Positions 1 through 41,182 of a stretch of 41,182 nucleotides of DNA are shown in pieces. The stretch comes from Escherichia coli (GTDB lineage: Bacteria > Pseudomonadota > Gammaproteobacteria > Enterobacterales > Enterobacteriaceae): NCBI RefSeq assembly GCF_003334355.1, contig NZ_QOWP01000031.1; one strand, written 5' to 3'. The first letter of the stretch is position 1. Each line of letters starts with the position of its first letter. The notes beneath the pieces are model-generated. The model did no database searches and had not been told where the DNA came from. It worked only from the letters and a program-made list of their open reading frames with translations. A program made the position numbers and the translations under genes.

Positions 1-90
1 CGTGTCAGTGGTGGCGCATTATAGGGAGTTATTCCGGCCTGACAAGAGGAAATTTAAAATAATTTTCTGACCGCGCAACATTCAACCAAA

Positions 91-948
91 TCAGCCTAAA
101 ACTGCCAGTTTTTCGAGCGTTTCGAAGCCGTAACGCTGTAAAACGGGCAATAATTGTTCAGCTCCTGGCGTCATTGCCATACAAAAGGCAATATTCGCAT
201 CGGCAGATTTTGCATCCGGGGCTTCATGTTCTAACAACCAGGCCGTTCGGCGAGCAATCGCTGCGCCAGAATCCACCAGCCGGGTTCCCTCTGGCAGCAC
301 TTGTAACAGTTCTTCTTGTAGTAGAGGGAAATGGGTGCAACCCAATACAACGGTATCTGGCGGCTCTTTCATTCTTAACCACGGGCGTAGGATACGTTTT
401 AGTGCATCCAGAGAAACATCTTCGCCATGTAGCTTCGCTTCAGCCAACTCAACCATCTCTGCCGAGCCCAGCATTTCTATCTGGCATTCATTAGCGAAAC
501 GCGCGATCAGCTCATGAGTATAAGAACGTTTAACTGTTCCGCGGGTTGCCAGTAATCCGACAATGCCATTTGCCGTCAGACGTGCAGCAGGTTTAATCGC
601 CGGCACGACACCAACAACCGGGAAGTCGAACTTTTCGCGTAATGCAGGAAGTGAAACGGTACTGGCAGTGTTGCAAGCGACCACAGCCAGCGCAAGGGGA
701 TAACGTTCTTGCACCGCGGTGACAATTGCCACCACTCGCTCAACAATAAACGCTTCGCTTTTTTCGCCATACGGGAAAGCGACGTTATCGAAAGCATAAA
801 TGTAATGGAGATCCGGTAAGAGATGCCGGATCTCGTCATAGACCGACAACCCACCGACGCCGGAGTCAAACACCAGCACGGTGGGACGTGGTTCAGAAGG
901 TGTAGCTGCCAGACAAGGTGTATTCCCGTCCTGCAGTTTGGTAGCCAT
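91..948 (-). CDS. murI: Glutamate racemase MurI
   Basis: ORF-track protein (289 aa) recognised as E. coli MurI; start trimmed to the internal Met (MATKLQDG...) giving 285 aa, the length I remember for K-12; ATG confirmed as cat at 946-948 on the plus strand. Confidence 0.9.
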
Positions 949-2737
949 AGACTGTCTCATAATCTTTGTCGAACAGGTTGGCTATTTTACCACGAACTGT
1001 CAGGTGAGAGGTGACCGGATACGCAACCGCAAGATCCCACAAGCTCACACCGCCCATTTTAACGGTTTGATAAGAATAAGATGAGTAATCCTTATCATAG
1101 CGAGTGCCTAAATACTGATAAGTAATACCCCAGTCGAAGTCATACAACTGCCAGTCGAGCTGGTATTTCACCTGCTGTTTAGCACGGCGTAACAACGGCG
1201 TGTCGGTAATCGCATTGCGCGCATCGACATAATCATAACTCACAGTATGCGTCAGTGGTCCGGTATCAAAATTGGCGGTCGCCTCGACGCCCTTAATCCG
1301 CGCTTTCCCTTCGTTGTAATATTTCAGAGTGTGATCATCATAATCGATCAAGTCACTGACATCGTTACGATATCCGGAAATACGCCAGTTCACCCCAGCG
1401 GTTAAGCCTTCAAACGCGCCTTCCCACTGTTTGCTTTTCTCCGGGTCCAGATTCGGATTTCCGTAGAAGCCATACAGTTGCCCCAGATTTGGTGCCTTAT
1501 AAGATGTCCCGTAGGAAGCAATGAAGCGATAACCTTCGATGAATTCCCAACCGGCGCTGGTTTGCCAGGTTCCATGACGACCAAACTGTGAGTTATCGTC
1601 ACTGCGTGCTGCGCCTTCAAAGGTAAAATCGCCGACTTGTTGCAGCCCGGTCAGATAGATGCCGGTATTACGTTGATCATATCCATCCTCAACATAACCT
1701 GTACCCGGCGTCGTAGTCTGTTTCTGCCAGTCGACACCCGCACCAATACTACCGTGACCAACGATGACATTGTTTGCCCACTGGACGGTGTATTGCTTCA
1801 TCTCATCGAGCGTCGCCGACGAATCATAACGACCATAATGGGGATCGTAGTTGTAATCTTTGCTATGGCTATAGCTGGTAATGAGTTGTGATTTAATCAG
1901 TTCGCCGTTATAGCGCAGCCCGGCGTCCCAACTTTGGCTATAGAGTTTACGGGTATCGAGCAACGGTGAACCGGGAGAATAATACGCGTCATAATTGGTA
2001 CGGTTATCATAGCCATAGCCGCGCACAAAGCCGCTCCAGGCATCAGTAAAGTTATGCTCCAGCGCGCCATAAAGCGTTTTACTTAAAAAACCATCGTTAT
2101 CTGTCTGCGCTTGCGTTCCGGTATTACCATAGGCAACAACATCATAACCATGAGTATGGGCATAATCGCCCAACAGCGTTACCCGTGTCTTATCCCCCAG
2201 TTGTTGCTGCGTAGAGACATCATAGTTCTGATAACTATTGCTTCCCCACCCTGCTGAAATTTCCGTTCCGGGTTCATCGCGCGTCGTGATGATATTCACC
2301 ACCCCGCCTATTGCATCGGAACCATAAACAGCGGAGCGCGGCCCACGGATATATTCAACACGCTGGACAAGCGCAATAGGGAACTGGCTAAGGTCGGCAG
2401 AACCACTCACCCCCGCCAGATTCAGGCGTACGCCATCAATTAACACCAACACATGACTGGCATTTGTACCGCGAATAAAAATAGATGAGAGCTGACCTGA
2501 ACCGCCGTTTTGGGTGATATCGACGCCCGGAAGACGGCGCAGCACATCATTGACCGAGGTCGACTGCCAGCGGTCGATATCCTGACGGGTCACAACGGTG
2601 GTTGGTGCAAGCACAGTGCTGCGCGGCTGTTCAAAACGGTTAGCAGTAACGACGAGAGTATCCGGGCTGGTATCCTGTGCCCAAGCGGAAAATGCCGTGA
2701 CGGAACACGCCGTCAGCAGCGAAGCTTTTTTAATCAT
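893..2737 (-). CDS. btuB: TonB-dependent outer-membrane vitamin B12 transporter BtuB
   Basis: 629-aa ORF contains the BtuB sequence starting [10 protein letters not shown] (signal peptide, TonB box DTLVVTA, C-terminal beta-barrel ending in F); start set at the internal Met (614 aa). The 3' end overlaps the murI start by 56 bp. Confidence 0.92.
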
Positions 2738-2977
2738 TGTAAAGCATCCACAATAGAAGAAGGATGCCGCAGGTTTCATCAATATTACGCGATGATGAGA
2801 ACCAGATGCGACGTTGGCCGGCAGGTCTTCGGGCTTGGAGGGGTATCTAAGATACTAAGAGATGATGACTTCCCACCGGATGGCAGTGTCCGCATAACGC
2901 AATCATCGCACCTTTCCTTACCGCTGCGCGTCAGCTCCAGATTCGCACTGGATTCCCTATTAACTCACAGGACCGGC
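2738..2977 (-). promoter_or_regulatory. Cobalamin (B12) riboswitch in the btuB 5' leader
   Basis: Roughly 240-nt untranslated leader directly upstream of the btuB ATG; minus-strand sequence GCCGGTCCTGTGAGTTAATAGGGAATCCAGTGCGAAT... and the B12-box-like GAAGACCTGCCGGCC (plus-strand 2811-2835) match the btuB leader as I remember it. The 5' boundary is approximate. Confidence 0.75.
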
Positions 2978-3105
2978 AAGTGGATGCTACAGGTTGTAAC
3001 AAGTTACTGTCCAGACGTAGCTCACAAATAGGAATTCATCAAGATCTGGACATCTGATGAGCAATCCCTACAATCGCCGCGTACTTTAATTTTTCAGGAT
3101 ACATC

Positions 3106-4206
3106 ATGACCCCCGAACACCTTCCAACAGAACAGTATGAAGCGCAGTTAGCCGAAAAAGTGGTACGTTTGCAAAGTATGATGGCACCGTTTTCTGACCT
3201 GGTTCCGGAAGTGTTTCGCTCGCCGGTCAGTCATTACCGGATGCGCGCGGAGTTCCGCATCTGGCACGATGGCGATGACCTGTATCACATCATTTTCGAT
3301 CAACAAACCAAAAGCCGCATCCGCGTGGATAGCTTCCCCGCCGCCAGTGAACTTATCAACCAGTTGATGACGGCGATGATTGCGGGTGTGCGTAATAATC
3401 CCGTTCTGCGCCACAAGTTGTTCCAGATTGATTACCTCACTACGCTGAGTAATCAGGCGGTGGTTTCCCTGCTATACCATAAGAAGCTGGATGATGAGTG
3501 GCGTCAGGAAGCGGAGGCCCTGCGCGATGCACTGCGCGCGCAGAATCTGAATGTGCATCTGATTGGTCGGGCAACGAAAACCAAAATCGAGCTGGATCAG
3601 GATTACATCGATGAACGTCTGCCGGTCGCAGGGAAAGAGATGATCTACCGTCAGGTAGAAAACAGCTTTACCCAGCCGAACGCGGCGATGAATATTCAGA
3701 TGCTGGAATGGGCGCTGGACGTAACCAAAGGCTCAAAAGGCGATTTACTGGAGCTGTACTGCGGCAACGGTAACTTTTCATTAGCGCTGGCGCGCAATTT
3801 TGATCGGGTATTAGCCACCGAAATCGCTAAGCCGTCGGTTGCTGCTGCGCAATACAACATCGCAGCTAACCATATTGATAACGTACAAATTATTCGTATG
3901 GCGGCAGAAGAATTTACTCAGGCGATGAATGGTGTGCGCGAGTTTAACCGCCTGCAAGGGATCGACTTAAAGAGTTATCAGTGCGAAACCATTTTTGTCG
4001 ACCCACCGCGCAGCGGTCTGGACAGTGAAACCGAGAAAATGGTGCAGGCGTATCCGCGTATTTTGTACATCTCCTGTAACCCGGAAACGTTATGCAAGAA
4101 TCTGGAAACATTAAGCCAGACGCACAAGGTCGAACGTCTGGCTCTGTTTGATCAGTTCCCCTACACGCACCATATGGAGTGCGGCGTATTACTGACCGCG
4201 AAGTAA
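3106..4206 (+). CDS. trmA: tRNA (uracil54-C5)-methyltransferase TrmA
   Basis: 366-aa ORF, full-length match to the remembered TrmA sequence ([18 protein letters not shown]...). Confidence 0.92.
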
Positions 4207-7981: not shown

Positions 7982-8090
7982 GAAACGGAGCGGCACCTCT
8001 TTTAACCCTTGAAGTCACTGCCCGTTTCGAGAGTTTCTCAACTCGAATAACTAAAGCCAACGTGAACTTTTGCGGATCTCCAGGATCCGC
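7982..8090 (+). ncRNA. oxyS: OxyS small regulatory RNA
   Basis: 109-nt sequence GAAACGGAGCGGCACCTCTTTTAACCCTTGAAGTCACTGCCCGTTTCGAGAGTTTCTCAACTCGAATAACTAAAGCCAACGTGAACTTTTGCGGATCTCCAGGATCCGC matches oxyS as I remember it; ends in a GC hairpin (GCGGATCTCCAGGATCCGC) followed by T8 at 8091-8098. Confidence 0.85.
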
Positions 8091-8152
8091 TTTTTTTTGC
8101 CATAAAAAAGCCCGGCGATAAGCCAGGCTCAAATTTATACATATAAATGTTC

Positions 8153-38082: not shown

Positions 38083-38181
38083 GCCTGATGCGCTACGCTT
38101 ATCAGGCCTACGTCATATTGCAATTTATTGAATTTGCACGAACTTGTAGGCCGGATAAGGCGTTCACGCCGCATCCGGCAT
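38083..38181. repeat. REP/BIME cluster
   Basis: GCCTGATGCGCTACGCTTATCAGGCCTACG ... TGTAGGCCGGATAAGGCGTTCACGCCGCATCCGGCA. Confidence 0.8.
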
Positions 38182-38989: not shown

Positions 38990-39262
38990 ATGGTCACAGT
39001 TAACCTTCATTGCCCCCGTTGCCAGTCCGTTCAGGTTTACCGTCACGGGCAGAACCCAAAAAGACATGATCGATTCCGCGGCCGTGACTGTCACCGGGTA
39101 TTTCAGCTCAGTTACTGTTACGAGCCCCGTAAACCGGGAGTTAAAGACCAAATCGCTGAAATGACTTTCAACGGTGCCGGGGTTCGCGATACTGCCCGTA
39201 CGCTGAAAATCGGCATTAATACAGTCATCCGAACTTTAAAAAACTCTCGCCACGAAGAATAA
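38990..39262 (+). CDS. insA: IS1 InsA-like protein (zinc-finger / HTH transposition regulator)
   Basis: 90-aa ORF MVTVNLHCPRCQSVQVYRHGQNPKRHDRFRGRDCHRVFQ... with CxxC...CxxxC zinc-finger-like spacing and a C-terminal HTH-like segment (ARTLKIGINTVIRTLKN); similar to remembered canonical InsA at roughly half the positions. Confidence 0.75.
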   Translation: MVTVNLHCPRCQSVQVYRHGQNPKRHDRFRGRDCHRVFQLSYCYEPRKPGVKDQIAEMTFNGAGVRDTARTLKIGINTVIRTLKNSRHEE

Positions 39263-39696
39263 CGTCATCCCCGGTCGCTCATGCTGATGTGGCACTCATC
39301 TGCAAACTTAGTCAGCAATGGAGCTTTGTCGGCAGTAAAGCGCGACAGCACTGGTTCTGGTACGTGTACAACACGAAAACTGGTGGTGTTCTGGCCTACA
39401 CTTTTGGCCCCCGGACTGACGAAACCTGTCGTGAATTGCGGGCGCTGCTTACCCTTTTACCATCGGCATGTTGACCACTGACGAATGGGGTAGTTACGCT
39501 AGAGAGTTACCGAAGGAGAAGCATCTGACTGGTAAGATTTTTACTCAGCACATTGAGCGTAACAATCTGACCCTGAGAACCCGAATCAAACGTCTGGCCC
39601 GCAGAACCATCTGTTTCTCGCGTTCTGTAGAACTTCATGAAAAAGTCATCGGTGCTTTTATCGAAAATATATGTTCTACTAATTGGAGTCATCACC
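39240..39696 (+). pseudogene. insB: IS1 insB-like transposase gene, interrupted by a frameshift
   Basis: InsB-like sequence is split across two frames: 39289-39474 (...QWSFVGSKARQHWFWYVYNTKTGGVLAYTFGPRTDETCRELRALLTLLP) and 39468 onward (MLTTDEWGSYARELPKEKHLTGKIFTQHIERNNLTLRTRIKRLARRTICFSRSVELHEKVIGAF...), with the shift near 39445-39450; the second frame has no stop before the right inverted repeat. Confidence 0.55.
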
Positions 39697-39837
39697 CTTC
39701 TGATAAGCTTTCCTTGGATGATTACCAGACTGAATACACAGCCAAAGATTTTTACCTCATTCTGCTCTTTTTTCTCAAATGACATATATTATATTTTACA
39801 TCATATTCATAGGCATATGACATTCCCCCGCCCCCCA

Positions 39838-40074
39838 TTATGTCATTGTGGGTTGATGTTGGGCTTTCATAAAAAAAACATCTTTTTTTGAACTAGCATT
39901 AATTATATTTACTTTATATATTAAAATATTTTCTCCATCTGGAAATATTTTAGCCACACAATATAAAGCAGCTGAATCCGAATTACTGAAAAATATATTA
40001 TCATCACCCATAACTCCAGCCATTAAATGACTGGAGACTAAAGCAAGGAAATAACAACATTGTATTGCCTTCAT
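39838..40074 (-). CDS. Candidate Rhs immunity protein (78 aa, signal-peptide-like N-terminus)
   Basis: ATG 1 nt after the Rhs TAA stop (minus strand GGGAGTAATTAAAATGAAGGCA, with GGGAG as a Shine-Dalgarno-like sequence); MKAIQCCYFLALVSSHLMAGVMGDD... The ORF track's longer 90-aa version starts inside the rhs gene. Very AT-rich. Role inferred from position immediately 3' of an Rhs C-terminal domain. Confidence 0.55.
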   Translation of the reverse strand: MKAIQCCYFLALVSSHLMAGVMGDDNIFFSNSDSAALYCVAKIFPDGENILIYKVNIINASSKKDVFFMKAQHQPTMT

Positions 40075-40075
40075 T

Positions 40076-41182
40076 TTAATTACTCCCTTGCCTGATAATT
40101 GTAACTCCATTCCCTTTAGCTTTGGGATTATATTTTAGATAGGTGTTATTTGGTGTTCCCAAGTAACTACTGTATTCTTTTTTTCCCATTCCATTCATAT
40201 AAGAATTCGTTAAATCTTTGCTTGAAAAATTTAGACTATCATAAACATCATTTTCTTTTGTTACTTTATTTCCTTTATCGTCAGAGTAAAAACCGTGAGT
40301 GTGATAATCGCCTACTCTCTCTGAACCTTCAGGGCATTTTATATTTCGCAAGTCTACACTATCATTATCATTTGAACTTATCGGATTCATGGGGAAATAT
40401 TCACCTTGCTTCTTACATATTAGTCCACCATATTCTTTATTCTCGTTAATTGATTCTCCATTACACATTGCCAATGCAAATATTCCAATATCATCTATAT
40501 TTTTTGATTTAAATTCATATAATCCTAATGGATCCATGCTATTCACCGGGCTCAGCGGATATGTATACAGGTTCCATCCCCCCTTCAGCCCAATCGGATC
40601 CTGAGTGATATACCTCCCCCGCAGCGGGTCATAATAGCGGTGGCGGTTATAATACAGGCCGGACTCCTCATCATACTGCTGCCCCGGCAGGCGGATGAGC
40701 TGCTGCAGCTGGTGCGGGTTCTCTTCATTCAGCTGGTTACCCCATTCATCGTATTCCCGGCGTATTTCCAGCCAGTCAGGCCCGGTGGCTGACGTTAACT
40801 GGCTGTGGTGGTTATAGTAAAACGCCGATGCCCTGCCATCCGGCGTGGTGATGCGCGTGATGAGGCCCGTCACCACATCCGGGCTGTATTCTGTTGTCCT
40901 GCCTGCGGCATCCGTCTGTGCCCTGAGCCTGCCCACCGCGTCAAACTGACTCTGCGTGACGCTGCCGTCCGCGTGTTCCTTTTTCACCACCCGCTTCAGC
41001 CCGCCTTCGCCTGCGGTATGCAGGACTTCACGGCGGTTCAGGCTGTCGGTGATGGTGATGCGGTCCTTCTCATACTGATACGTGTAGCTTAAGCCTGCCG
41101 GGTTTAGCTGTTCTGTCACCCGCCCGTCGCTGTCGTAACGGTAACGGATTTCCGGCCGGCCCGTGTGACGGTGCGCCACCAT
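40076..41182 (-). CDS. Rhs-family polymorphic toxin, 3' portion (YD-repeat core end + DPxGL + 147-aa variable C-terminal domain); 5' end lies beyond the window
   Basis: ORF is open to the window edge; translation contains YD-repeat core sequence and the core-terminal motif ...[39 protein letters not shown], followed by a 147-aa AT-rich tail ([10 protein letters not shown]...RQGSN). Stop at 40076-40078. Confidence 0.85.

Follow-up and report, generated by a model that had tools for sequence, protein, structure and literature searches.

An AdoCbl riboswitch leader and a conserved btuB/murI coding overlap in Escherichia coli, with a candidate murI promoter inside btuB

The 240-nt leader of btuB in this Escherichia coli sequence is best read as an AdoCbl riboswitch, followed at the far end of the gene by a 56-nt dual-coding overlap with murI, which would be kept independent of B12 by a promoter of its own; we place the probability of this overall reading at about 95%. 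In this reading, coenzyme B12 bound by the aptamer would stabilize an L5/L13 kissing-loop pseudoknot, P14 would then conceal the Shine-Dalgarno sequence so that btuB is left untranslated, and the untranslated btuB RNA would be shortened by Rho within the early coding region. The final 56 nt of btuB double as code for the first 19 residues of the essential protein MurI, and murI expression would be left independent of B12 by a promoter inside btuB that has its extended -10 element at 984-992 and begins transcription at 976. The literature is the source for ligand binding, for what P13 and P14 do and for termination by Rho; the covariance-model match, the covariation, the overlap, the murI start codon and the dual-coding constraint come from the present analysis.

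All positions refer to the window, by which we mean the entire 41,182-nt stretch of DNA that was analysed. Window 1-3300 is 100% identical to the chromosome of E. coli OW1E2 and has a match in every one of the 5,426 complete E. coli genomes that were searched. The arrangement of genes is that of K-12 MG1655, where btuB lies at 4163639-4165483 and murI at 4165428-4166285:

91-948, minus strand: murI, as annotated by RefSeq in the identical record; the coding sequence specifies a 285-aa glutamate racemase, identical over residues 1-285 to PDB 2JFN chain A
893-2737, minus strand: btuB coding sequence, 614 aa, TonB-dependent B12 receptor (translation, RefSeq and K-12 annotation)
3106-4206, plus strand: trmA, as annotated by RefSeq in the identical record

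Just downstream of murI, window 1-60 on the minus strand holds the rrnB P1 promoter, with its -35 (TTGTCA) at 45-40 and its -10 (TATAAT) at 23-18. The published start, 4164390, corresponds to the A at window 9, and the promoter is preceded by an A/T-rich stretch which we take to be the known UP element.

The elements that define the btuB leader, all on the minus strand, are as follows:

2984-3013, minus strand: btuB promoter from a consensus scan, with -35 TGGACA (3013-3008), an 18-nt spacer and -10 TAGCAT (2989-2984)
2738-2977, minus strand: btuB 5' UTR, 240 nt; +1 is the G at 2977 and the btuB ATG is at 2737
2803-2992, minus strand: cobalamin riboswitch, Rfam RF00174
2927-2930, minus strand: L5 loop CGCG, complementary to L13; aptamer side of the L5-L13 kissing loop
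2816-2836, minus strand: B12 box AGCCCGAAGACCUGCCGGCC, unique in the window
2776-2798, minus strand: P13 hairpin, with the L13 loop CGCG at 2788-2791
2744-2767, minus strand: P14 hairpin (GCAUCC/GGAUGC), which covers the Shine-Dalgarno GGA at 2747-2749, a short way before the AUG (2737)
2528-2657, minus strand: region +81 to +210 of the btuB coding sequence, in which Rho termination has been reported (PMC11162775)

The spacing of the btuB promoter predicts a +1 at 2977, in agreement with the published start: the class I start 4161422 (K-12 version 2 coordinates; PMC4681348 Table S2) converts to window 2977. The conversion was anchored on the murI ATG, with the starts of btuB (2977) and of rrnB P1 (window 9) as checks. 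A G-to-T change in the -35 of btuB, which yields TTGACA, has been described to raise expression (PMC10802341). The interval 2738-2977, which the original prediction had named as the btuB leader from the sequence alone, is therefore exactly the 240-nt 5' UTR from the transcription start to the base before the ATG at 2737, and it corresponds to the -240 leader used for btuB in PMC11162775. Helix P1, too, begins at window 2977. The riboswitch sits between this mapped +1 and the btuB AUG at 2737, and hence within the 5' UTR of a gene linked to cobalamin.

A cobalamin riboswitch had been expected on the minus strand here, and an Rfam scan of the whole window returned RF00174 with a score of 86.8 bits against a gathering threshold of 31.5 (E = 3.1e-20). 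The match is full-length, covering model positions 1-189 of 189, and RefSeq places a cobalamin riboswitch at identical coordinates in the identical genome. The transcribed aptamer core spans 2817-2977, with P1 closing at 2977/2817; the 15 bases of the RF00174 match that lie upstream of 2977 fall outside the transcript and, as expected for that reason, are unpaired both here and in relatives. The B12-box-like string that had been noticed on the minus strand is GAAGACCTGCCGGCC, the reverse complement of window 2816-2830, and it is the single such site in the window even when up to two mismatches are allowed (0.07 expected by chance). In 45 aligned leaders all but two columns of the B12 box are invariant or nearly so (at least 90%). 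The 3' part of the box supplies the 3' strand of P1 (2817-2822) and is base-paired with AGG at 2956-2958.

The structure was examined in relatives. A scan of a genome collection with BtuB yielded 57 loci ranging from Escherichia to Serratia, Rouxiella and Photorhabdus, with BtuB identities of 58-99%. RF00174 was found at the same position in 18 of 20 diverse Enterobacterales loci, ending ~65-75 nt before the ATG. We aligned 45 Enterobacterales leaders and projected onto them the Rfam pairs together with P13, P14 and the L5-L13 kissing loop. Standard pairs are formed by 81.6% of cells, compared with 35-43% when the 3' partners are slid, a comparison biased in favour of the tested structure, which was built from this sequence and the Rfam consensus. 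Changes on both sides were observed in 19 pairs, and the covariation score was reached by none of 500 shuffles. Compensatory changes occur across genera in all six stem pairs of P13, the CGCG loop of which is invariant bar one sequence. The L5 CGCG is invariant in all 45 leaders; the two tetrads of the kissing loop (2927-2930 and 2788-2791) never vary in 44-45 of 45 leaders and show no covariation, and P14 is 99.6% paired across the 45 leaders, also without covariation. Because the kissing-loop and P14 pairs are essentially invariant, the alignment is neutral with respect to them, speaking neither for nor against. As a partner for L13 we also considered the loop UGCGA of the CCAGUGCGAAUCUGG hairpin and rejected it: this loop varies (GUGYRAAU) without compensation in L13, and the partner of L13 is instead the invariant CGCG (L5) in the next hairpin.

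Folded alone, the expression platform forms P13 and P14 (z = -2.73), and P13 is present in the minimum-energy fold. The end of P13 at +202 agrees with the published extent of this stem, and the L5-L13 kissing loop has been described with P13 at about nucleotides 177-196 (PMC5359240), in agreement with the coordinates given here. Folding of the whole leader was uninformative, its stability being no greater than that of shuffled sequence (z = +0.48). With the K-12 leader, a btuB translational fusion is repressed 97% by AdoCbl; P13 forms a pseudoknot with the aptamer, P14 governs ribosome access to the Shine-Dalgarno sequence, and blocked translation leads to Rho termination within +81 to +210 of the btuB coding sequence (PMC11162775). 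The same work describes the small RNAs OmrA and OmrB as a separate layer of control on btuB. In the corresponding window 2528-2657, C makes up 33.1% of bases compared with 23.6% in the whole coding sequence, and G is not depleted (25.4% compared with 26.6%).

The K-12 btuB AdoCbl riboswitch (RF00174, clan CL00101) shares with this leader the promoter, the +1, the B12 box, the P13 pseudoknot hairpin, P14 and the downstream gene. The only difference is a U-to-C change at +99 (window 2879), which falls in a variable loop and gives no hint of a functional difference; this loop varies among genera, and C is found at the position in other Escherichia lineages too. The translational riboswitches of E. 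coli thiC, lysC and ribB, which trigger Rho, likewise have a platform that sequesters the Shine-Dalgarno sequence and no intrinsic terminator in the leader.

Several loci in the collection depart from this picture. The other two of the 20 loci scanned, both from Photorhabdus (L043 and L050), gave no RF00174 match at the gathering threshold, and in L043 no cobalamin riboswitch was found within 1 kb even at E <= 1. The region of the Shine-Dalgarno hairpin differs in eleven Photorhabdus loci, and Photorhabdus btuB retains the 56-nt overlap with murI and a TGnTAGAAT motif; btuB in this genus may not be regulated by B12 through a cobalamin riboswitch RNA. In Tenebrionibacter intestinalis, an insect-gut species, the riboswitch (2262-2437 of its locus) scores far lower, at 54.7 bits, and carries substitutions at otherwise invariant sites (A to G in L5, G to A in L13, and a P14 5' strand of GCAGCC), which suggests a switch that is decaying or altered. 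The leader of a Leclercia MAG has an insertion of ~45 nt in a variable peripheral loop of the aptamer (alignment columns ~160-205) that looks as if it could form a hairpin of its own (CCCCAUCCUCAG...CUGAAGUUGGAGGGG). In Intestinirhabdus alba (2501-3676 of its locus) the btuB frame ends at 3676 rather than at ~4345, with the riboswitch (79.9 bits) and murI intact; a pseudogene or an assembly error is possible. Finally, a 506-bp contig assigned to Caballeronia mineralivorans encodes residues 53-217 of E. coli BtuB at 100% identity, and an assembly labelled 'Chryseobacterium sp. 18061' contains a whole btuB-murI locus of Enterobacteriaceae type, both of which are likely to reflect contamination or mislabelling of public assemblies.

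At the 3' end of btuB the features of interest, again on the minus strand, are:

893-948, minus strand: btuB/murI overlap, 56 nt, encoding BtuB residues 597-614 plus the stop codon and MurI residues 1-19
984-992, minus strand: candidate extended -10 element TGGTAAAAT, inside btuB codons 582-585
976, minus strand: published class I transcription start (FWD_(I)-4163423, PMC4681348 Table S2; 4165400 in K-12 version 3 coordinates), 28 nt upstream of the murI ATG

btuB ends with its stop codon at 895-893, and the murI ATG (948-946) lies inside the btuB codons TAT-GGC (Tyr597-Gly598), so that murI is read in the +1 frame relative to btuB. The overlap had been proposed as 56 bp (893-948) in different frames, and this arrangement, of the same length and in the same +1 frame, recurs in every one of the 54 sequences compared (the window and 53 usable loci), which range from Escherichia to Photorhabdus. 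K-12 btuB-murI (b3966/b3967) has the same out-of-phase, same-strand overlap of 56 nt and the same protein termini, and the window shows no differences from it. A codon-level alignment of the overlap gave an entropy at conserved residues of 0.51 bits, against 1.24 bits for btuB outside it; a codon entropy as low is seen in just 1 of 306 btuB windows of equal size. Third positions of btuB codons are second positions of murI codons here, so the synonymous constraint reflects selection on MurI residues. No indels were found within the overlap in any sequence; indels of 3-6 codons occur in the MurI linker right after the btuB stop. The MurI residue pattern MA.xLQ..NT..L.A..S is conserved, and across the shared bases conservation is seen in the C-terminus of BtuB as well as in the N-terminus of MurI. 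On the basis of the low synonymous entropy, the lack of indels and the conserved start codon, we conclude from the alignment that the overlap is real dual coding.

Of the two findings that would have refuted the original prediction, the lack of a cobalamin riboswitch match and a murI start past the btuB stop, neither was made. ATG 948 is the sole in-frame start codon retained in 54 of 54 sequences, every alternative being kept in at most 34 of 54, and the solved structure of E. coli MurI (PDB 2JFN) has the same 285-residue sequence, beginning MATKLQ. A start downstream of the btuB stop, for instance at the GTG of codon 24 (879-877), would make 893-948 merely a murI leader. Many glutamate racemases lack the N-terminal extension, and the conserved core of MurI starts at about residue 23, both of which would be in keeping with such a start. 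Transposon insertions in the overlap are moreover tolerated in this essential gene, and the authors of that study propose an alternative start (bioRxiv 10.1101/2025.12.01.691526). However, only 34 of 54 sequences have a GTG, ATG or TTG at codon 24 and 31 of 54 do at codon 26, no sequence shows a stop or an indel in the murI frame across the overlap, and the constraint on btuB third positions and the conserved pattern of MurI residues also speak against such a start. As the 285-residue form is also that of both PDB 2JFN and RefSeq, we regard a downstream start as very improbable. Even less credence, close to none, can be given to the in-frame ATG at window 960, which was the start of a program-made open reading frame (91..960) and would give a protein of 289 residues and an overlap of 68 nt: it requires TAT at btuB codon 593, where 46 of 54 sequences, E. 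coli E69 among them, have TAC, it would leave a leader of just 16 nt after the class I start at 976, and RefSeq, the K-12 annotation and the PDB all have 948.

With ATG 948 as the murI start, the tolerance of insertions in the overlap means that the N-terminal 19 residues of MurI may be dispensable. These insertions are tolerated in one orientation, with a bias of ~10:1 (bioRxiv 10.1101/2025.12.01.691526), which fits an internal murI promoter. The same study reports that the Keio collection lacks a btuB knockout, that transposon insertions in the overlap were attributed to murI, and that a btuB deletion sparing the 3' end is viable. The description of btuB and murI as two essential-pathway genes thus holds for murI, which is essential, and fails for btuB, which is dispensable.

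Constraint on btuB extends beyond the overlap. The synonymous profile is flat (normalised entropy ~0.7-0.85) up to codon ~570 and then drops to ~0.33, and the 25 lowest 12-codon windows of synonymous entropy all fall in codons 566-614; the collapse is confined to the last ~45 codons. The constraint begins ~75 nt upstream of the murI ATG (window ~950-1021), a region with a series of near-frozen codons: TAT in 54 of 54 sequences (codon 573), CGT (53/53), GGT (47/47), AAC (54/54) and GAG (54/54). Within it lies the candidate extended -10 element, as which TGNTANAAT is retained in 53 of 54 sequences, and the two synonymous third positions that this element requires (CGT, GGT/GCT) are T in all 54. 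The class I start at 976, which rests on one start-site dataset, is 7 nt downstream of the element (TGnTAnAAT); starts of this class are TAP-enriched and at the leading edge of transcription (PMC4681348), and Table S2 of that work records no RegulonDB overlap for start 4163423. The collapse of synonymous variation in btuB, the extended -10 and the class I start together indicate that murI probably has its own promoter inside btuB, independent of the riboswitch. We lean towards the fuller view that the last ~130 nt of btuB (~893-1021) serve at once as the code for the final beta-strands of BtuB, as an extended -10 promoter and 28-nt leader for murI and as the code for MurI residues 1-19, and that murI would be kept on under B12.

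The same constraint could have another origin, either a need at the RNA level for internal initiation on a btuB-murI co-transcript (for example, an unstructured landing site for ribosomes) or a constraint on the codons for the last beta-strands of BtuB. The candidate promoter has no recognisable -35, and a promoter scan inside btuB gave nothing at this element or elsewhere in 950-1021. btuB-murI has also been treated as a single operon, with a 300-fold rise in transcript level upon mutation of the btuB promoter and RBS (PMC10802341), and a GAG triplet resembling a Shine-Dalgarno sequence is invariant upstream of the murI ATG. Against this stand the TAP-enriched, leading-edge start at 976, located 7 nt past a conserved TGnTAnAAT, and the putative murI leader, which has no unusual structure (z = -0.26); in addition, Rho termination in btuB would deprive the essential murI of transcript unless murI had its own promoter. 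We consider an origin other than a promoter rather doubtful. A weak promoter site at 1121-1094 (minus strand) in btuB was discarded, as such sites are no more frequent than in shuffled sequences and this one matches no mapped start. Literature searches on the murI start site or promoter returned nothing relevant, and no paper characterising the promoter was found; the part of the Cappable-seq supplement (PMC4782308) that was accessible has no entries near the locus, and Adams et al. make no mention of btuB or murI.

If the murI promoter is real, it would explain how an essential gene can overlap and lie downstream of a gene that is silenced by a vitamin: with a promoter encoded in synonymous sites of btuB, murI, and hence D-glutamate synthesis, would no longer depend on B12. 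When btuB is engineered, for instance to confer resistance to phages or colicins or to alter B12 uptake, deletions would then have to spare at least the last ~130 nt of the gene, beyond the 56-nt overlap. The riboswitch and the btuB/murI overlap are both already known and serve well as the positive controls for which the original prediction had recommended them; as such, they document that a riboswitch leader was placed to the exact base and a coding overlap spotted from sequence alone. Modestly new are the finding that all 54 sequences, as far as Photorhabdus, conserve the overlap, and the constrained zone reaching ~75 nt upstream of the murI ATG.

We also note several features elsewhere in the window. 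A marginal Rfam match to the ES036/CssrF small RNA at 38104-38145 on the minus strand (39.6 bits against a gathering score of 37.6) lies inside the coding sequence of metJ in antisense orientation and could be fortuitous or a relic. The far end of the window (39236-41182) contains, in the annotation of the identical RefSeq record, an IS1 transposase with a frameshift along with pieces of an RHS element (rhsC). Finally, a full-length OxyS small RNA (RF00035, 139.5 bits) is encoded at 7982-8091 on the plus strand, divergent from oxyR, and is absent from the feature list of the RefSeq record for the identical genome.
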